From a virus: a DNA stretch of 64,000 nt. The stretch is taken from IMG/VR virus record IMGVR_UViG_3300036446_000021. One strand, 5' to 3'. Of the stretch, positions 3,937 to 55,259 are shown in pieces. The translations under genes were made by a program, and so were the position numbers. How positions within the stretch are numbered: position 1 is the stretch's first letter; each line of letters opens with the position of its first letter. The notes beneath the pieces are model-generated. The model was not told where the DNA came from, made no database searches, and worked only from the letters and a program-made list of their open reading frames with translations.

Positions 3937-4093
3937 GCGTTAGTTCATAGCATTATGTTAGCACGAGTTTCTTCATGTGAACTAGTTGACAGTGTGAACA
4001 AGTTAACGCATCATAGAGATAAGGAAAGGCGCTCTATCCCGCGAAGAAGAAAGCGCCCCTCCCACAAAGTCCCATCACTGGAACCCCTCAATT

Positions 4094-4402: not shown

Positions 4403-4750
4403 GTGCCCATTCTCATGCCCTTCATTCTGAGCAACATCATGGTTAAGCACGGTACTGACGCAGTTGCGTCCCTCCTTCCCGCTGACATTTATCAACGCTT
4501 AAGCACCTTTGAGCTTGAGATTCTCGGTCACATCCTCCAGCGCCCTGAACCCCAGTTCCAGTTGTGGCAGAAGGTCAAGCACGGCAAACACACCGCGATG
4601 GTGACGGGACTGCGCTATCAGTCCCTCAAAGCTCGGTTTACGGAAGAGGATGATTTCATCGGCTGGTACTACTATGTCGAGCACGAAGACGGTCAGGTGG
4701 ATATCTGCTACGAGAACAACCTCACAGCACTGGAGGAGGAGCAGTCATGA
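4403..4750 (+). CDS. Hypothetical phage protein (start may be ATG 4439)
   Basis: ATGA overlap with the next ORF; protein-like composition. Confidence 0.55.
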   Translation: MPILMPFILSNIMVKHGTDAVASLLPADIYQRLSTFELEILGHILQRPEPQFQLWQKVKHGKHTAMVTGLRYQSLKARFTEEDDFIGWYYYVEHEDGQVDICYENNLTALEEEQS

Positions 4751-5217
4751 ACACGACCACACTAAGTCCAGTTACCCAAACCGAGGGCACCTACTACGGC
4801 TTACCCTCCTTCAAGCTTGACGGTGAAGAATACATTGTTGGCACCCTGGCACAAGCCACTACAGCGGCAGCAGCCTGCATCAGGGAGTGCGCCATCTCCT
4901 CTGGTCTGATTGACGCAGAAATGCTCTTAGCCTATTCCTGTCTGCCACCACAAGCGCTGGCACTCATGCGCCATCTGCAAGGGGGTTGCTACACCATCGC
5001 TGAAGAACAGGCGTTAATGCAAGTGCTGGATGTCGAGGCACTGACAGAGGCAGCATTGTCCCGCTATGGCATCGCCCGGTTTCTCTGTGCGGGGTATGGC
5101 GATACTGCTGTGGGTCGCACGCTTAGCAGCTTTCCGGCTCATGTGGGAGAGTTCATTCTCCAAGCGTTGGGGCTGACTGCTGAACAGGCGGCAACGGCCA
5201 GACTCTATCGGGTTTAG
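4747..5217 (+). CDS. Hypothetical phage protein
   Basis: 156-aa ORF coupled to the upstream gene. Confidence 0.55.
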   Translation: MNTTTLSPVTQTEGTYYGLPSFKLDGEEYIVGTLAQATTAAAACIRECAISSGLIDAEMLLAYSCLPPQALALMRHLQGGCYTIAEEQALMQVLDVEALTEAALSRYGIARFLCAGYGDTAVGRTLSSFPAHVGEFILQALGLTAEQAATARLYRV

Positions 5218-24600: not shown

Positions 24601-25990
24601 AAACACTGCCCAGTGCTTCTCCTAGTGGTTGTAAAGCTTTAACCAGGATACTGCCTGCGGTTTGCACTTTTTCAGAGATGCCAACTGCGAAATCAGCGAC
24701 ACTGGTCAGCAGCTTTTCAAGTTCTGGCTGAGCTTTCTGGAGGCTGATGAGAATTCGATTCAGTGGTTCAAGGATAGCATCTAGGATCGGTGCCCCCGCT
24801 TTCTGCGTGACGACCTCAAAGACCTCTTGCACGTTTGAAGTTAGTCCGGCGAAGCCTCTAGCCGCTAATTCCTGCCCTGCTACTAGCGCCTTTGTGCGTT
24901 GGTCAATGTACTCGTACAACCTGCCTTGAGCAATGAGCGATCGCGCCTTTTCGTTATTCAATTCCAGCGTTTTCGCCAGTGTGTTAAAGGTCGGATCGAT
25001 TTGTAGGTTCGCAATCTGCGCGATGTATGTCTGTGCCTGCCCCAGTGGTAAACCTAGCGTGGTAGCAGAGGCATTGAGTTTGATGGTGACTTTTTCGGCT
25101 TGCTCCAGGTTGATACCCAAGGCGTTTGCCTGCTGCGCAACTAGCTTAAACGACTCCACCAGTTCGGAAGACGTGATGCCGCTAAGCTGTAGTGAATCAA
25201 GGCGGATTTGATCAATTTGGCGTTGTACTTCTGGTAGGACGGTTTGGATTGCTTTCACCGGATCGGTGACATTCTCGCCACCGATCGACACTTGCTGTAC
25301 GTTCGCTAGCAGAGCTGACAAACCCAATGTCTGCTCTCTGAGTCTGACGTTTTGACCAATTAGCAAGTTAAACGCTTGTCCGCCAGTTTGTGCTAGTCGT
25401 TGGGCGGCATTGGTGGCCTCGTTAAAAGCAAAAGCCACCCCTGCGATCGGTGTTTTAGCTAAATTAGCCAGATCGCCAAGACTACTGAACAACCCCTCCA
25501 CAGGTTTTGTCTTTTCTTCAAGTGACTGTGTTCTTAACGCTGCTGCTTGCGCTCGTGACTGCGCTGCTGCTGCATTGGCTGTTGCCTGGATCGCCCTTGC
25601 CTTTTCCGTTTCCAGCTTCACCGCTTGCTGGTCAACCTGGATCGCTTCTTTCTGTGTTTTCAGTCGTTCAGTTTCGGTTCTTGCTGCCTGTTGACTAGTT
25701 TTCTCTTGTTCGGCAGTGGCTTTAGCTAATTGCTGCGCAGCCTTGGCAGTCTCAGCCGCAACTTTCGCCCCTTCCTTCGCTGCTCGATTCTGTTCTGTCG
25801 TCTGGTTCAGTTTCTGAAACTCTTGAGCAAGCTGGCGAATGGAGTCGATCGCGCCGCCAAACGTGAACGGGGTAGTGGCGATCGCGTTAATCTGCGTTTG
25901 AATTTGACTCAAGGATTCAATTCCTTGAGTCGATATTTGCAAAATAAGATCTAAAGTTCTTGAGCTTGCCAAGCTCGAATTCCCTGTCAA
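21626..25990 (-). CDS. Tail tape measure protein
   Basis: 1454 aa, Ala/Gln/Leu-rich helical, central hydrophobic stretch (LLLQIGLLAAIVAPLVPTILAVV), long coiled coils; downstream of tube and chaperone genes. Confidence 0.88.
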   Translation of the reverse strand: MTGNSSLASSRTLDLILQISTQGIESLSQIQTQINAIATTPFTFGGAIDSIRQLAQEFQKLNQTTEQNRAAKEGAKVAAETAKAAQQLAKATAEQEKTSQQAARTETERLKTQKEAIQVDQQAVKLETEKARAIQATANAAAAQSRAQAAALRTQSLEEKTKPVEGLFSSLGDLANLAKTPIAGVAFAFNEATNAAQRLAQTGGQAFNLLIGQNVRLREQTLGLSALLANVQQVSIGGENVTDPVKAIQTVLPEVQRQIDQIRLDSLQLSGITSSELVESFKLVAQQANALGINLEQAEKVTIKLNASATTLGLPLGQAQTYIAQIANLQIDPTFNTLAKTLELNNEKARSLIAQGRLYEYIDQRTKALVAGQELAARGFAGLTSNVQEVFEVVTQKAGAPILDAILEPLNRILISLQKAQPELEKLLTSVADFAVGISEKVQTAGSILVKALQPLGEALGSVLKAGGESLGGILNSLADAFVATATAIAPLLSIVGELAKVFASFASTDIGRLLLQIGLLAAIVAPLVPTILAVVAVVSSAVGAITAVSTALPLLIGLLTPTAAGLGAVALSAALAAAPLVALAAALALIVTGFEAVKLAAVNDAIETLSESTNRLADESLNYAQRLKSLNDIEKNGGKLTEEQIALKKQLLSLTAGTKQSIEQQIADLKALQPANQEQANALKVQIALLEQRAKLLSGQANVGLGNRALQDLGKTKDLIDQSLKGAQTDLLNPAKAEDAAKRVQEFTQTALDAGRITRSEAAKNLEALQNNQGLELKTRLSAQKALTDLLQKGADEEVATLKTKEKTIESDLKAGRLSQIEGERQLTVAKAEELDKQLALNAEGIKRELELTGGRSSPRLVALRREEAELQGQRSAISEDGNRKRAQAEQTAADNELKILEGKRVSGKLSEEAFANESLAITKRRLALEQQELERQRGLLKPGDKAGQQAIDAQEAALNSKREAAEEQFQSRKLAIVERAQKKAEDAAKLSEISRNTEIDQLIAARQIRESEAGLLRVQTSRQTIAKELELEKEKTAALEKLPKVSDPVKEEERQQKIRASRIRTAELADSLVKNEIEQQEALFRVVSERLDRQAQAAKNAAEGQVQPLQAQLQLQDALSKSLENQNKLLEARKGLQNALTGFAESSLALLQKSGASEKDQQTATLLIAAQKFAALQRQQQLEQQTLNIQLRQNAAALEREKIQNRISQIQNQADQAQAAADLAKAKADPNARLNPEAIRAAELNLQAKQAAGLGLQLQGAELNDRGRVEAQTAAAQQQALQITQRTQTQQARSALIEALPDDGAKQEARFRLQQEVLSGSGFGVTSLGDINTDRIRQAAITGQGNLGLPGILNPLAAPSAFVSSPQVLALQQQLSGLIKGQTAIAPITSNNNSPQLQSTLDKLNATIEAGQARPIQATVNNTIAGPDASQVVDLATKRMTDNLIGVLGRVN

Positions 25991-26026
25991 GACTACAATA
26001 GACGAGGGAAATTAGAATCTTCTCAA

Positions 26027-26058
26027 TTATGCCCTCTAGATTGCTCTAGAGGGCATAA
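26027..26058. terminator. Perfect 14-bp inverted repeat (terminator, RNA end stem or operator)
   Basis: TTATGCCCTCTAGA-ttgc-TCTAGAGGGCATAA. Confidence 0.7.
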
Positions 26059-26064
26059 CTTTTA

Positions 26065-26173
26065 CTGCCATAATAAACCGCACCTCAGCGCACCCCGCCT
26101 GACCACTACGCACCACAACTTGCCAGGTCATACCAAACCCAACAAACCTCGTCCTACCTGATATCGCCATGCC
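26065..26173 (-). repeat. GGY-NN pentamer array 2, putative guide-type ncRNA
   Basis: Minus strand: GGCAT GGCGA TATCA GGTAG GACGA GGTTT GTTG GGTTT GGTAT GACCT GGCAA GTTGT GGTGC GTAGT GGTCA GGCGG GGTGC GCTGA GGTGC GGTTT ATTAT GGCAG; 14 of 21 pentamers start with exact GGY; one 4-nt unit shifts the register. Confidence 0.85.
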
Positions 26174-26206
26174 ACAAATATCAGTATGGCTTTTTATAGT
26201 CCATGG

Positions 26207-27316
26207 TTATTCAAAACTTTGGCATCTTGAACTTGGAAGTAAACGGAAACCATAGATTCCCGCCAACCCTAGATATTCAAGATTCTTGGAAGCATTAAAA
26301 TCAGCATGGTCAGCATGATTGCAATTCACGCACAAGAATCTATCGCCTCTACGGTTTCGCCTGTCCCACTTGCCACAAGCGTAGCAGCGCTGCGAAGTCT
26401 TCCAGGGGTCTTTGCGTTGAACCTCAATCCCCTTAACTTCACAATGGCGCTGCAACAAACTTGCAGCATAGGCATACAGCCAATGAGACAACCGCCTGTT
26501 AAACCTGCGAGAGAACGTCCCTCGTTTGCCAGATTTAACTTTCTTCAAATCTTCAATGACAAGCACTTTGATCTGAGAGAAATCTATTTGCTTAATCGCC
26601 TGACCCAGCCAGGATTTAATCTCTGCTCTGGTGTGTTTTTGGCGCTTTGCAAAGCCTTGAATCAGATGGTACAACTCGGTGCCTACGTTCTGCCCATCCG
26701 AGAATACCAATCCATTTTTATAGTTAGAGTCCATCCCCACTACCCGTCCTTCAGTCTTGGGTGTAGGTCGTTTTTTCTCCAGCAGAAGGTCGATAAAAAG
26801 TCTGCCTTTCCTCATCCCCAGTCGAATTGTTTGCCGCAAGTTCCAACCATCCGCCAGCTTCTCATTCAGCGGCTTAGTCGATGGAATCGGAACGGTCAAC
26901 CCTTTGGGAGCGCCAGAGCCAGTGAAGCGAACTGCCCAATTAAAGCCATTCCCTCGAAATGGCTCAACGCTAACGAAGTGATAGAACAATGTCACGACTT
27001 GGCGCTGCAAATTGGGCTTACGCTTCTTAATCCTCTTACGCTGACTGGCAACGACTTCACCGCCCTGTTTTGCCAAAGCCTGACTCAATCGAGTCGTCGC
27101 CCCGAACCGCTTCACAGCACGGTGAGCGGTAGACAAATCAGCCAGCTTGCCGCGAAAGTCTTGCCGCCGCCAATACAGGTCAACGAAGTACTGCATGATG
27201 TCATGGCAGCGATGCAGGAAGGCTTTCAAAACCTCTTGCTTTCCTTGATTCAGGTCATTCAGATAAACCCGATACGACCGAGACATCATTCCTTTGTCAC
27301 GCCGCGCTGCCATCAC
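26207..27316 (-). CDS. tnpB: IS607-associated TnpB RNA-guided nuclease
   Basis: VVGMDSN (RuvC-I), VIEDLKKV (RuvC-II), TSQRCYACG and CVNCNH zinc finger, HADFNASKN (RuvC-III); alternative start ATG 27289. Confidence 0.88.
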   Translation of the reverse strand: MMAARRDKGMMSRSYRVYLNDLNQGKQEVLKAFLHRCHDIMQYFVDLYWRRQDFRGKLADLSTAHRAVKRFGATTRLSQALAKQGGEVVASQRKRIKKRKPNLQRQVVTLFYHFVSVEPFRGNGFNWAVRFTGSGAPKGLTVPIPSTKPLNEKLADGWNLRQTIRLGMRKGRLFIDLLLEKKRPTPKTEGRVVGMDSNYKNGLVFSDGQNVGTELYHLIQGFAKRQKHTRAEIKSWLGQAIKQIDFSQIKVLVIEDLKKVKSGKRGTFSRRFNRRLSHWLYAYAASLLQRHCEVKGIEVQRKDPWKTSQRCYACGKWDRRNRRGDRFLCVNCNHADHADFNASKNLEYLGLAGIYGFRLLPSSRCQSFE

Positions 27317-27909
27317 TCCGTCTCCTCAATCGCTTTGATTGCAGCCTCAGTCTTTTTACGTCCTCTGCGTTGCCCATACAACCTTGCTGCAAAGCTCGTA
27401 ATCACAGCTACCAAATCTTCCATCAAATCATGGGTGCAATTATCTGAAAGGTTCACCACTTCGATTTTGAATGGGCAAAGAGACTCAAACCAACGGAATC
27501 CAAAGCGGGTTAAGCGGTCTTTATTTTCAATCAGGAGTACGTCAAAGTTTTGGTCTTTCAATAGTTTGTGGAGCTTTTTGCGATCGTCATTCATCCCAGA
27601 GGCAAACTCTTTCGTTGTCGAAATGATTTGGTATCCCTTGGCGATGGCGTACCGGGTTAAGCCGTCTACCTGCGAGTCCATTGCCGCTTTATTTTCAGAT
27701 GACGACTCTCTGGCATATAGGGCGCATTTAACCCCGCTACTGGCAGGGGCTTCACCTAGCTGCTCTGCCAGCCAATATCCAGGAATAAAAACATGCCCTG
27801 ATTCAGATTTAAGGCTAGGCGCTTTCCCTGCATACACCCACCGTCTGAGTGTCCATGGGTTTACGCCTAGCATCTTTGCCGCTTTAGTAAGCTTGTACCT
27901 TTGCTCCAT
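27313..27909 (-). CDS. tnpA: IS607-family transposase TnpA (MerR-like HTH + serine recombinase)
   Basis: AAKMLGVNPWTLRRW, ALYARESS, FASGMN, ENKDRLTRFGF, DLMEDLVAVITSFAARLYGQR. Confidence 0.93.
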   Translation of the reverse strand: MEQRYKLTKAAKMLGVNPWTLRRWVYAGKAPSLKSESGHVFIPGYWLAEQLGEAPASSGVKCALYARESSSENKAAMDSQVDGLTRYAIAKGYQIISTTKEFASGMNDDRKKLHKLLKDQNFDVLLIENKDRLTRFGFRWFESLCPFKIEVVNLSDNCTHDLMEDLVAVITSFAARLYGQRRGRKKTEAAIKAIEETE

Positions 27910-27957
27910 ACCTCAAAGTATAGCAAAGAAAGTCAAAGTTATGGAGAATTAGTTATC

Positions 27958-28047
27958 ATGCCAAGTCTTAACTCAGCAAACCCGACCCAACCAGATCTCG
28001 TCAAACCGGATTTGACCCTGGCAAACCGTACCGAACCTTGCCAAACC
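27958..28047 (-). repeat. GGY-NN pentamer array 1, putative guide-type ncRNA
   Basis: Minus strand, 18 in-phase units: GGTTT GGCAA GGTTC GGTAC GGTTT GCCAG GGTCA AATCC GGTTT GACGA GATCT GGTTG GGTCG GGTTT GCTGA GTTAA GACTT GGCAT; 17/18 start with G, 18/18 have a pyrimidine at position 3, 11/18 exact GGY; bracketed by TGATAACT copies exactly 100 nt apart (27951-27958, 28051-28058). Confidence 0.9.
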
Positions 28048-28055
28048 TCAAGTTA

Positions 28056-28685
28056 TCAGTCTAATCCAACTTGAAAACTGGTTACAACAAACCGACCGTA
28101 AGTAGGGCGAAAATCAGCAACGCCAATAAGCTTCCCAGCCATTGTCAGAACATCCATGAAGTCTACAGGTCGAATGTACTCAGGGACATTTACCAAAAAA
28201 CTAATCTCGCACTTCCAGCCGGCTTTAAGCGCTGGTCTTGTTCTTGTTATACCAGCCCTTTGCACAGTTACACGGCACTTGTGTTCGTAGTCCCATGCAC
28301 TTACACCCAAAGGCGCAAGTGGAGTCAACGCAACAATCCCAGCCTTGTATAAATCCATAGCCGATTTTCGCGGAGATCGTGGGTCTTGCCTGAATTTAGC
28401 GGCATTAATTACAGCCATCCTGAAATATTCGCCAGGGATGCACAATATACCTTCATCATCTCGATAAACATAACTTTCGATATTGTCTGATTTTTTGGTT
28501 TTAGACCCTTTCGCTGCATTCGCTTTTGCCTCTACCTCTTCACAATTCCAGCGATGAAATAGAATATCAGCCACGCCTTCAAGCTTGACAGTAGCAATAT
28601 ATGGCTGACAAAGCTCCAATACTTCAAGCGCCCCATTCGTAACTTCAGGGCCAACCGCTGTCGCAACAATACCGTTTTTGACCAT
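28056..28685 (-). CDS. Stand-alone Cas7/RAMP-like protein
   Basis: CIPGEYFRMAVINAAK resembles the RAMP IPGSSLKGALR helix; RTRP...W...F.V; C-terminal Gly-loop-like AGKLIGVADFRPTYGRFVV; no other cas gene in the window. Confidence 0.72.
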   Translation of the reverse strand: MVKNGIVATAVGPEVTNGALEVLELCQPYIATVKLEGVADILFHRWNCEEVEAKANAAKGSKTKKSDNIESYVYRDDEGILCIPGEYFRMAVINAAKFRQDPRSPRKSAMDLYKAGIVALTPLAPLGVSAWDYEHKCRVTVQRAGITRTRPALKAGWKCEISFLVNVPEYIRPVDFMDVLTMAGKLIGVADFRPTYGRFVVTSFQVGLD

Positions 28686-28791: not shown

Positions 28792-29013
28792 ATGGTCGTG
28801 AAAAATCTTGTTGCAAAGGCTCTTCAGGAAAGAGAAATGACGCGTTATAGGTTTTGGCAAAAAACCGGATTAGCGCGTGTTACAGCGTATCGTCTGGTAG
28901 ACGACCCGTTGTATGTACCTGGCGGTGACGTATGGGAGAAAGTCTGTGCGGCTTTAGATTGCCAGCCTGGCGAATTATTAATTAGAGAAATTGAAAACAA
29001 TAACTTAAGCTAG
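28792..29013 (+). CDS. Cro/C1-type (Xre) HTH regulator
   Basis: LQEREMTRYRFWQKTGLARVTAYRL...WEKVCAALDCQPGELL. Confidence 0.85.
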   Translation: MVVKNLVAKALQEREMTRYRFWQKTGLARVTAYRLVDDPLYVPGGDVWEKVCAALDCQPGELLIREIENNNLS

Positions 29014-31894: not shown

Positions 31895-32522
31895 TTCATG
31901 CGTTTACTACTACAATGATCGATCAGGTTCCGTCTGCAATGCGTTTCATTCACTTGCTTCAATTGAGCATGCGGAAAGTTGCCGTGATTATAAAAAAGAT
32001 GAATCAAAGCTTTTAGCGGTATCATCACGCGATCGATGGGTGTGCACACAGCCTGAGGATGGATGGCTCGACATTCATCGCTATGAACGTGTTTATTTTG
32101 ATAAACCGAATAGGTTATTGCCGTTCACGATTGGTATTACTTTTGACTCCAATTACAGACGTTGTCGTTATCAAACTTTTGGCATTACGGATAGCGCTTG
32201 GTCGTGCCACAAAGTTACTCATTATGAAGTAGAACGAGAATTTGTAGAGACGATGGATATGAGCAGGTATGTACCTGCGGCTATTGCCACAAAAACGTTT
32301 ATTTCTGCAAATATTGAATTCAGTGACCCTTTCTTAGGCTTGTCTACATTTGACGGGCATTACACTTTCTTAGACCTGTCTATATTTGACGGGCATTACG
32401 AAGTTACGTCAAACCCTGCTTACTCACCATCTATAGAATATTTTTCGCATGTTTTGAGCATCAGGCGCTTGCCCGCTGAATTAACAATTCTCAGAATTCC
32501 GATCGCTGGAACACGAGGATAA
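31881..32522 (+). CDS. Hypothetical protein with N-terminal Cys cluster
   Basis: CNSCVYY...CNAF...C; AT-rich; internal 12-aa duplication. Confidence 0.55.
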   Translation: MRTCNSCVYYYNDRSGSVCNAFHSLASIEHAESCRDYKKDESKLLAVSSRDRWVCTQPEDGWLDIHRYERVYFDKPNRLLPFTIGITFDSNYRRCRYQTFGITDSAWSCHKVTHYEVEREFVETMDMSRYVPAAIATKTFISANIEFSDPFLGLSTFDGHYTFLDLSIFDGHYEVTSNPAYSPSIEYFSHVLSIRRLPAELTILRIPIAGTRG

Positions 32523-53222: not shown

Positions 53223-55259
53223 TTGGCTCGACACATTGACTTAGCAAGCACAACCGAAGCCGATCTTAAGATCGGGGGGCCAGGAGGTAAGAGCGTACTG
53301 ACAACAGATGCTCAATTCCTGTTGGTCGAGGGCTGTGAATGCTCGGTCAACGGCAGCAACACACAGTATCTCGACCTTACCAGCGGCAAGGCGATTGTTG
53401 ACGTGCAAGGTGTGCGCTACGTGGTCACACCAGCCGCGTTTACCAAGCGCCTCAACGCAGCCTGGGCGATCGGCACTAACGCAGGCGGCTTGCTGACAGG
53501 TTCATCGTTCCCAGCATCCACAACGCTGCATTGCTATATTATGCGGCGGCGTAGTGACGGGACAGTTGATCACGGGTTTCATACGTCTGCAACCCAATCG
53601 ACGTTTACAGACGGTTCTAGCAACGTTTGGGATCTGCGGCTGCACATGTCGATCACGACACAGAGCAGCAGTATTCGCCCAATCAAACAGAACGGCGGCT
53701 TAGTGCAATACCTCACGCCAGTCACAGATATTACAGCCGTTATTGGTACGACAGCCTCTCTCTATACGCTGTCGGTAGTCACTGGTATCAAAGTCAGGCC
53801 ACTCTGCAAAGCGCATCTAGGCACGCAAGCATCGTCTGGCTACACTTTCTACTATTTCTCTGATCCCGACTGCGTGGATATTGCACCTGATTCCAGCACG
53901 CAATCCGGCAACACTGGGGCTTTTATGGTTGGGGCTTACTTGTATACTACGGCTGCCCCGATCGAGTACATCTACTGCAACACTTCGGCCCAAATTCGTG
54001 GACGGGCTAGCGCTACTGCCAGCAATACAATCATCACGACCTTTGGGTACATTCACCCGCGTGGAGGCAATCCCACAGCAGCGCAGACGGTTGTCTTGAA
54101 TGCGGGTACGGTGCGATCAACTTTTTCTGACGCGAACTACACAGTTACTGCTGGTACGACGATCGCGGCTCAGACGGGCACAATGAGCGCTGCACGGACA
54201 GTCACCTTGCCTGCTGCCAATGCTGTTATTGCAGGTTTTCAGTTATTGGTGATTGACGAAGCGGGTAGCGTCACCACCACAAACAGTCTGTCAATCAGTG
54301 CGGCTGGTAGCGACACAATTAATGAACTCACTTCGCTGCCAGCTTTAATCAACAACGCTAGCAGTTCAGTTATTTTGGAAAGCGACGGAACATCGAATTG
54401 GACGGTCGTTAAAAGCTCTCCTTGCATTTTTGAATTTACTAGTTCGGGGTCTTTCAATTTCCCGAATAACAACTTCAAACTAATAAGAGAACTACTCACA
54501 GGCGGTGGTGGTGGTGGTGGTGGTGGTAGACGTGACGCCACCAGTACGGCAAAGGCAGGAGGCGGCGGGGGGGCGGCAGGCAGCGTCATAGACACGATCG
54601 TTAATGCCGTAGACCTACTAGCGCTAGGTCTTACTATGACAGTGACGATCGGGGCTGCTGGTACGGCTGGTAACGCGGCTGCTTCTGATACCGCTAACGG
54701 AGGTAACGGAGGCACAGGCGGCACGACTAGCCTCAGTATTAGTGGCACTACGATCGGGCAAGCGCCTGGGGGCAACGGAGGCACAGGCGGCACCACCAGC
54801 ACAGGTACACCGGGAGCAGCCTTAAACTCAACCTCGGCTCAATGGATTGGTGGTGGAGGCGGCACAGGTAATGCGACATCGGCAGGGCAAAATGGGTCTT
54901 CACACGCCTATGCACCTGGTAGCGGCGGCGGCGGCGGCGGTGTCAACGCCAGTAATGTTGCTCAAGCAGGCGGAGCCGGGACGGTTGGGTCGCGGGCGGC
55001 ACATGGTACTACAACAGGCGGCACGGCTGGCACCAGTGGCACCTCCGGGGGTAATGGTGGTGCTGGCAGCGTGATTAACAATACGTGGGGAGGAGGAGGA
55101 GGCGCGGGGGGCGGCGGCGGTTCGTCAGGGACAGGAGGTGCCGGGGGGTCTGGTGCACGTGGCGGTGGCGGCGGCGGTGGCGGCGCTTCGCTCAACGGCA
55201 ATGCCTCTGGTGGAGGTGGTGCTGGTGGCGCAGGTTTTGCCCGTATAGTTTTCTTCTGA
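53223..55259 (+). CDS. Tail fibre protein with C-terminal glycine-rich domain
   Basis: FTSSGSFNFP...GGGGGGGG, repeated GGAG/GGNGG, terminal GGAGGAGFARIVFF. Confidence 0.75.
   Translation: MARHIDLASTTEADLKIGGPGGKSVLTTDAQFLLVEGCECSVNGSNTQYLDLTSGKAIVDVQGVRYVVTPAAFTKRLNAAWAIGTNAGGLLTGSSFPASTTLHCYIMRRRSDGTVDHGFHTSATQSTFTDGSSNVWDLRLHMSITTQSSSIRPIKQNGGLVQYLTPVTDITAVIGTTASLYTLSVVTGIKVRPLCKAHLGTQASSGYTFYYFSDPDCVDIAPDSSTQSGNTGAFMVGAYLYTTAAPIEYIYCNTSAQIRGRASATASNTIITTFGYIHPRGGNPTAAQTVVLNAGTVRSTFSDANYTVTAGTTIAAQTGTMSAARTVTLPAANAVIAGFQLLVIDEAGSVTTTNSLSISAAGSDTINELTSLPALINNASSSVILESDGTSNWTVVKSSPCIFEFTSSGSFNFPNNNFKLIRELLTGGGGGGGGGRRDATSTAKAGGGGGAAGSVIDTIVNAVDLLALGLTMTVTIGAAGTAGNAAASDTANGGNGGTGGTTSLSISGTTIGQAPGGNGGTGGTTSTGTPGAALNSTSAQWIGGGGGTGNATSAGQNGSSHAYAPGSGGGGGGVNASNVAQAGGAGTVGSRAAHGTTTGGTAGTSGTSGGNGGAGSVINNTWGGGGGAGGGGGSSGTGGAGGSGARGGGGGGGGASLNGNASGGGGAGGAGFARIVFF

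Follow-up and report, generated by a model that had tools for sequence, protein, structure and literature searches.

VIPR (Viral Interference Programmable Repeat) systems combine a minimal RAMP protein, Vipr, with vrRNAs, each of which consists of 9–16 GGY/NN repeats with a 3′ tail behind them; a locus has several vrRNAs, and the systems are mostly viral (10.64898/2026.04.26.720920). The arrays are defined as tandem GGY/NN (YNNGG) pentamers, at least four units in number, with a conserved GGY and a hypervariable NN (10.64898/2026.04.26.720920). Seven types (I–VII) and six vap genes (vap1–6) have been described. In the case of Escherichia phage SUSP1, the type II system is made up of Vipr, Vap1, and four vrRNAs (10.64898/2026.04.26.720920, 10.64898/2026.04.26.720927, 10.64898/2026.10.15.759431; PDB 36pp), and cryo-EM has revealed that residues H17, R138, D177, W178, and R179 of its Vipr hold G1, G2, and Y3 of the repeat (10.64898/2026.04.26.720927).

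Here, we describe a 5-base-periodic tract at positions 26065–26173 (minus strand) of a 64,000-nucleotide stretch of viral DNA (IMG/VR record IMGVR_UViG_3300036446_000021), hereafter the window. We read the tract, with a probability of roughly 0.86, as the second vrRNA gene of a phage VIPR system whose Vipr would be the product of the gene at 28056–28685. The system is of a kind already described, and the locus leaves the picture of the VIPR mechanism unchanged.

The window covers positions 54261–118260 of contig G000:C70. Over the 343.7 kb of this contig, a 102,201-bp unit is repeated head to tail 3.36 times at 100% identity, which points to a phage-like replicon, circular or terminally redundant, in a long-read assembly. 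The density of HIP1 (GCGATCGC) is 0.93 per kb on the contig and 0.94 in the whole genome, 62 times the random expectation, and the G+C content of the contig also matches that of the genome; on these grounds, the element is a phage-like replicon that has long resided in a cyanobacterium. The 102-kb unit has PHROG matches, in keeping with the viral context of VIPR. No CRISPR-like tandem repeat was found in the 64-kb window. A 36-nt unit is present there in two tandem copies of 91% identity (32329–32399), and it is not CRISPR-like.

The features of the locus are as follows, beginning with the divergent gene upstream and continuing in the direction of the minus strand.

28792..29013, plus strand: divergent gene for a 73-aa Cro/C1-type HTH protein (Pfam HTH_26, E 1.7e-12).

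28056..28685, minus strand: vipr gene, encoding a 209-aa RAMP/Cas7-like protein predicted to read the GGY/NN repeats (profile match and fold).

28048..28060, minus strand: leader motif ACTGATAACTTGA before vrRNA1, overlapping the TGA stop codon of vipr (single match in the window).

27961..28047, minus strand: repeat tract of the putative vrRNA1 (array 1), with 17 pentamers (28047–27963) and the GG of unit 18, where an insertion sequence (IS) cuts it.

About 26201..27960, minus strand: IS607-family insertion of 1.76 kb between the vrRNA1 tract and the spacer.

27313–27909, minus strand: tnpA of this element, a serine recombinase gene (Pfam Resolvase and MerR-type HTH).

26207–27316, minus strand: tnpB of this element (Cas12f1-like TNB domain).

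26174..26200, minus strand: 27-nt spacer from the IS to array 2, holding the putative start of the vrRNA1 tail, TAAAAAG, and the leader motif ACTGATATTTGT.

26065–26173, minus strand: array 2, the GGY-NN tract of 109 nt, with six pentamers, a 4-nt unit, and 15 in-phase pentamers.

26140..26173, minus strand: the six out-of-register pentamers and GTTG, belonging either to the 5′ portion of vrRNA2 or to the tail hairpin of vrRNA1.

26065..26139, minus strand: guide tract of the putative vrRNA2, with 15 in-phase GGY/NN units, inside the published range of 9–16.

26020..26064, minus strand: 3′ tail of the putative vrRNA2, TAAAAGTTAT and then a 16-bp hairpin (26027–26058; RNA fold).

Past this hairpin, last in the order of the locus: gene for a 1454-aa tail protein.

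Read on the minus strand from 26173 to 26065, array 2 begins with GGCAT, GGCGA, TATCA, GGTAG, GACGA, and GGTTT, slips by one base at GTTG, and continues as 15 pentamers, the first of which is GGTTT and the last GGCAG. The grammar of the units is simple: position 1 is nearly always G, position 2 is often G, position 3 is a pyrimidine, and positions 4 and 5 are free. Over the 15 in-phase units, the information content of positions 1–5 is 1.65, 0.62, 0.84, 0.20, and 0.17 bits, as is characteristic of GGY/NN. The second G is missing from five of the 15 (GACCT, GTTGT, GTAGT, GCTGA, and ATTAT), while the G of position 1 is retained in 14, and GGTTT is the most frequent unit. Between 26065 and 26139, pairs of GG are more numerous at lag 10 (eight) than at lag 5 (five), and units with a complete GGY and units with the first G alone tend to take turns.

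Chance does not account for this phasing. The tract holds 11 in-phase GGs; 5,000 shuffles that preserved dinucleotides gave 5.5 ± 0.9, and not one of them had as many as 11. When the DNA was scanned for places with at least seven in-phase GGs out of 10, the window contained two arrays only, array 1 and array 2; the 7.28-Mb genome contained 20 further places, nearly all of them generic purine-rich runs of G lacking the pyrimidine at position 3, with one inside an open frame and one being a 15-nt tandem repeat. Arrays 1 and 2 are the sole GGY/NN arrays of the 7.28-Mb genome.

In the putative vrRNA1, 11 of the 18 units begin with GG and one phase is kept throughout; the information content of positions 1–5 is 1.68, 0.45, 1.21, 0.13, and 0.07 bits. 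The original prediction for this DNA, that array 2 shares its strand and grammar with array 1, is borne out by these similar profiles. Its count of 21 pentamers and one 4-nt unit is confirmed on the minus strand, its NN string after the slip (TT AT CT AA GT GC GT CA GG GC GA GC TT AT AG) is identical to ours, and the resemblance it saw between the leaders is real, with ACTGATATTTGT (26185–26174) before array 2 and the similar ACTGATAACTTGA (28060–28048) before array 1.

In a single-sequence phmmer search, the 209-aa protein matched PDB 36pp_D, the "SUSP1 Vipr protein," at E 2.6e-4, and a nine-sequence profile (this protein and eight homologues) matched the same chain at E 9.4e-11 over 171 profile positions. 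The match spans profile positions 30–200 and chain positions 5–188 and is, thus, nearly full length. Residues H44, R150, D191, F192, and R193 align to H17, R138, D177, W178, and R179 of SUSP1 Vipr, and all five are invariant in the nine-sequence profile; the substitution of F192 for W178 preserves the aromatic stack. An AlphaFold2 model (pLDDT 72.6) returned almost exclusively Cas7-type RAMP subunits among its top 50 Foldseek matches, mostly Csm3, with a probability of 1.0 to Csm3, and the neighbors in the ESM Atlas were unnamed viral clusters first and then Csm3 at a TM-score of 0.61. Judged by this alignment and the conserved contact residues, the 209-aa protein is a member of the Vipr family. 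Since a Vipr and GGY/NN arrays lie together, the locus is read as a VIPR system, and 15 in-phase GGY/NN units that are intergenic, flank vipr, and lie downstream of it on the same strand have the features expected of a VIPR array.

The protein belongs to phrog_4652 and has no match in Pfam, in which no family covers its clade. At a threshold of E 1e-5, that clade comprises 6,924 clusters, the nearest of which has 75% identity. Some of the public names within it look wrong: a member in phage DSL-LC04 (OR003939.1, L033 2471–3088) is called a "helix-turn-helix transcriptional regulator," and members in JGI records (proteins P0153 and P0184) are called "archaeosine-15-forming tRNA-guanine transglycosylase." No second vipr was found in the genome; a weak tblastn match on contig C29 is an unrelated ORF with no arrays nearby.

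Homologous loci, with proteins 53–66% identical to the 209-aa protein, were collected from IMG/VR contigs, a MAG, and the GenBank phage DSL-LC04. By one criterion, GG-phased pentamer arrays adjoin the vipr homologue in nine of 10 related loci, nearly always on its strand, with one to five arrays directly beside each gene, and they are also present beside the gene in the two closest long contigs (73% identity). The NN content differs in every related locus. Hairpins lie 3′ of many of the tracts, and the tail sequences cannot be aligned across the related loci (53–75% identity). In a tblastn search of GenBank phages with the window protein, three records only were matched, SUSP1 not among them. 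In the closest long relative (L038), a tRNA gene (3938–4009) and a CsrA-domain gene (4598–4924) follow the vipr array, and in a sister contig the CsrA-domain gene is fused to a DNA methylase.

The 3′ hairpin of the putative vrRNA2 has a predicted energy of −26 kcal/mol (z −6.7), and none of 200 shuffles was equally stable; a terminator scan reports it as a plus-strand site only. The TAAAAG segment 3′ of array 2 is paralleled by the TAAAAAG with which the spacer begins. The four to six pentamers that precede the slip may belong to a tail hairpin of the preceding RNA or to a 5′ extension of vrRNA2, as judged from their sequence; a possible hairpin between the spacer and these leading pentamers (CTGATAT...ATATCAG) is weak, with a z of −0.8 when RNA folds were compared with shuffles.

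A promoter scan found no sigma-70-like promoter on the minus strand. A search for sequencing runs holding this sequence listed the source DNA sample only and no RNA run. A motif resembling YTGATAA (28059–28053 and 26184–26178) precedes the first GG unit of several tracts by 5–12 nt; it also occurs 5′ of tracts in related loci L025 and L040, and even precedes internal tracts away from any stop codon. This motif may represent a promoter element of the extended −10 type (TGnTAnnnT), or else a signal for vrRNA processing in this clade. Searches of Rfam matched no family in 25500–28600 at E values up to 1, and, in ten related loci, neither a hammerhead nor any other family except one tRNA.

How does this locus compare with the systems already known? 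Like SUSP1, it encodes a stand-alone RAMP protein that is small (about 200 aa) and shares the GGY-contact residues, it has tracts in the flanking intergenic DNA on the strand of the gene (9–16 GGY/NN units) and more than one vrRNA, and it is carried by a phage and lacks a CRISPR array. Unlike SUSP1, the two proteins being related at the profile level only (E 9.4e-11), it has F in place of W178 and a plain 16-bp hairpin as tail, in which no likeness to the pseudoknot tail of SUSP1 could be detected; its host is a cyanobacterium, and one guide is interrupted by IS607. No vap1-like gene follows vipr here, whereas a divergent Cro/C1 HTH gene lies upstream. Among the neighbors across the related loci we found no conserved vap accessory gene, which leaves this divergent HTH_26 gene as the sole candidate in the window. 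It is possibly a regulator or a DNA-binding accessory of the cassette, an uncertain link suggested by position, and it is not conserved beside vipr in the related loci examined.

The VIPR of a Pseudomonas fulva prophage shares with this locus the logic of a protein plus vrRNAs, its place on a temperate or resident element, and several guides per locus; it differs in that its vrRNAs map to regulators of a resident prophage, whereas no target was found here. The resemblance to the Cas7/Csm3 filament of class 1 CRISPR lies in the predicted fold (Foldseek probability 1.0 to Csm3) and in the arrangement of one protomer per repeat unit on a guide RNA, with base flipping mediated by the thumb. In contrast to class 1 systems, VIPR has a period of 5 nt, with three bases sequestered and two paired, rather than of 6 nt with five paired, and its guide is hard-wired in the genome instead of being acquired. 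CRISPR repeats and spacers are absent here, and no other cas genes are apparent.

What we infer for this guide, namely, its transcription, binding, target, and present activity, would run as follows. By homology to SUSP1 and P. fulva, the tract of array 2 would be transcribed into a small RNA of about 100 nt, along which Vipr protomers would polymerize, one per pentamer. The RRM sheet, the thumb, and the G-loop would keep the GGY bases flipped out, and the NN bases would be presented for pairing. The filament would then bind double-stranded DNA whose complementary dinucleotides lie one skipped base apart, and would silence transcription there, the probable targets being a competing phage, prophage, or satellite. 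The original prediction had taken the tract for a second guide of a Cas7-like protein in a multiplexed locus, with targets of the form NN-x-NN. Homology (the Vipr profile at E 9.4e-11 and the Csm3/Cas7 fold) and architecture support the guide, several vrRNAs per Vipr are usual in published systems (10.64898/2026.04.26.720920), and the target format is that of the published 1-nt-skip rule.

The IS607 element lies between the two arrays. Each 102-kb unit has one copy, which sits in vrRNA1 directly behind the GG of unit 18 and ends 27 nt before array 2 begins. The junctions carry GG at both sides (27962–27961 and 26202–26201), in agreement with the GG core dinucleotide of a different IS607 element (PMC10690162). 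We set the ends of the element with eight related insertion sites, whose TnpA proteins are 71–89% identical and whose flanks are unrelated; homology among them is limited to the region from GCAT..ACTAAT through ..TTTTGAATAACCAT (27961 to 26203 in the window, where the element is accordingly placed at 27960–26203), and one related contig breaks exactly at AACCAT. No DNA relatives of the IS together with its flanks were found in phages, plasmids, or the 90 genomes of the order, and hence there is no empty site for comparison.

The termini of this IS607 subgroup (L003, L006, L011, L012, and L014–L017) are GCAT..ACTAAT at the left and ..TTTTGAATAACCAT at the right, 3 nt past the stop codon of tnpB. 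In related copies, GG is not found at both junctions: a G always stands before CAT, and the bases after CCAT vary. Because of such copies, the core dinucleotide or TAM of the subgroup may differ from the TGGG/GG of the Clostridium botulinum element. Judging from its position, the 27-nt spacer would supply the guide of TnpB.

As a result of the insertion, vrRNA1 is now parted from the DNA formerly 3′ of it, and vrRNA2 lies downstream of tnpB on the same strand. Because the 1.76-kb element lies between the vrRNA1 tract and the DNA that followed it, it probably hampers the use of both guides today, and the insertion may have detached a guide from its native promoter.

Targets were sought on both strands by replacing each GGY with one wildcard base (1-nt skip); under the published rule, a natural target has an NN match of 80% or more. 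In its own genome, the best match reached 22 of 30 bases for vrRNA2 and 24 of 34 for vrRNA1, with controls of skip 0 and skip 2 giving equal values; the arrays themselves were recovered only with skip 3. This absence of self-targeting agrees with the VIPR preprint. At up to three mismatches, no target of vrRNA2 was found in a phylum sample of 401 cyanobacterial genomes and the 90 genomes of the family, and none of vrRNA1 in the genus. Three exact nine-unit seeds per guide gave a few matches in IMG/VR, which extended to 18–24 only, the chance level, and one exact 10-unit seed in JGI metagenomes likewise extended no further than chance; for vrRNA2, the seeds in both collections reached 18–22 of 30. 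These seeds of nine to 10 perfect units are strict, and the mobile elements of the host are thinly sampled. For orientation, the authors of the VIPR preprint identified targets for 20 of 41 guides of the SUSP1 clade with a dense pangenome, and they report that vrRNAs are often degenerate internally. The original prediction held that a lack of gapped matches above background would count against a guide, as would a lack of transcription or binding. The first half, having been run, gave no match above the skip controls or chance and speaks weakly against the guide.

There are three other ways to explain the tract. One is that array 2 is a VIPR tract by descent that has decayed or become inactive and is no working guide now. 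One third of its units are degenerate at the second G, its register slips by 1 nt, no collection searched holds a target, and an IS607 lies directly upstream with no promoter-like site on the minus strand; against this, according to the preprint authors, internal degeneracy is frequent and about half of the SUSP1-clade vrRNAs have no target. Moreover, a first-position G in 14 of 15 units beside a free NN is what selection predicts, the 3′ hairpin is intact, and the co-oriented tnpB could supply transcription by read-through. On balance, we consider decay unlikely.

As for the second, tnpA and tnpB have an array at either side, both on the same strand and directly oriented, and the known ends of IS607 elements (IS1535 and IS607) carry short direct repeats over 60–80 bp by tnpA/tnpB, bound by TnpA and with a GG junction core (PMC6188088, PMC10690162), so one might take the arrays for subterminal TnpA-binding repeats, with array 2 also part of the omega-RNA of TnpB. 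Such repeats, however, lie within the element and move with it, whereas none of the eight related insertion sites has GG-phased arrays beyond its ends, and arrays accompany vipr homologues in loci without IS607. We rejected this candidate, as the conserved ends of the eight sites leave the arrays outside, and it is very improbable. Equally improbable is the reading in which the tract codes for protein or is a pentanucleotide microsatellite in decay, with no role as an RNA guide. The DNA is G-rich, A-poor, and open in some frames (array 1 in the vipr frame past TGA TAA, array 2 in one frame), and the prevalence of GGTTT would suit a microsatellite; nevertheless, a strict phase of 5 nt is not a multiple of three and places GGY in all three codon phases, for which reason coding was rejected, and conservation of positions 1–3 with freedom at 4 and 5 is unlike neutral decay. 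The same grammar with other NN also recurs beside diverged vipr genes. The reading that we prefer for the 15-unit tract and its hairpin is vrRNA2.

A further pair of proposals, which we regard, jointly, as rather unlikely, concerns the insertion and the clade. The arrays offer GG every five bases and the serine transposases of IS607 elements require a GG core, so that the arrays could be preferred landing sites and the insertion no accident. Separately, the combination of a vipr lacking a conserved vap gene with a plain hairpin as tail and YTGATAA as leader may amount to a VIPR architecture that is yet to be characterized. If the arrays were such a hotspot, an RNA-guided transposon would have severed an RNA-guided weapon of the phage from its tail and would now drive or block the second guide; recurrent insertion of IS607 in arrays, if true, would mean that two RNA-guided systems are in conflict or are being rewired.

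VIPR, described only recently (four 2026 preprints), is a form of RNA-guided DNA recognition that is possibly older than CRISPR and has so far been characterized in enterobacterial and Pseudomonas phages. As we read it, the present locus extends VIPR to a 102-kb phage-like element of a cyanobacterium. Besides this host, the points of interest are the clade of Vipr proteins, which is very large and unannotated, the hairpin tail, the lack of an evident vap, and the IS607/TnpB insertion after a GG of an array, a small experiment of nature on the 3′-end requirements of a vrRNA. Once rival elements have been sequenced, the targets of the guide pair would reveal phage-against-phage conflict in cyanobacteria.
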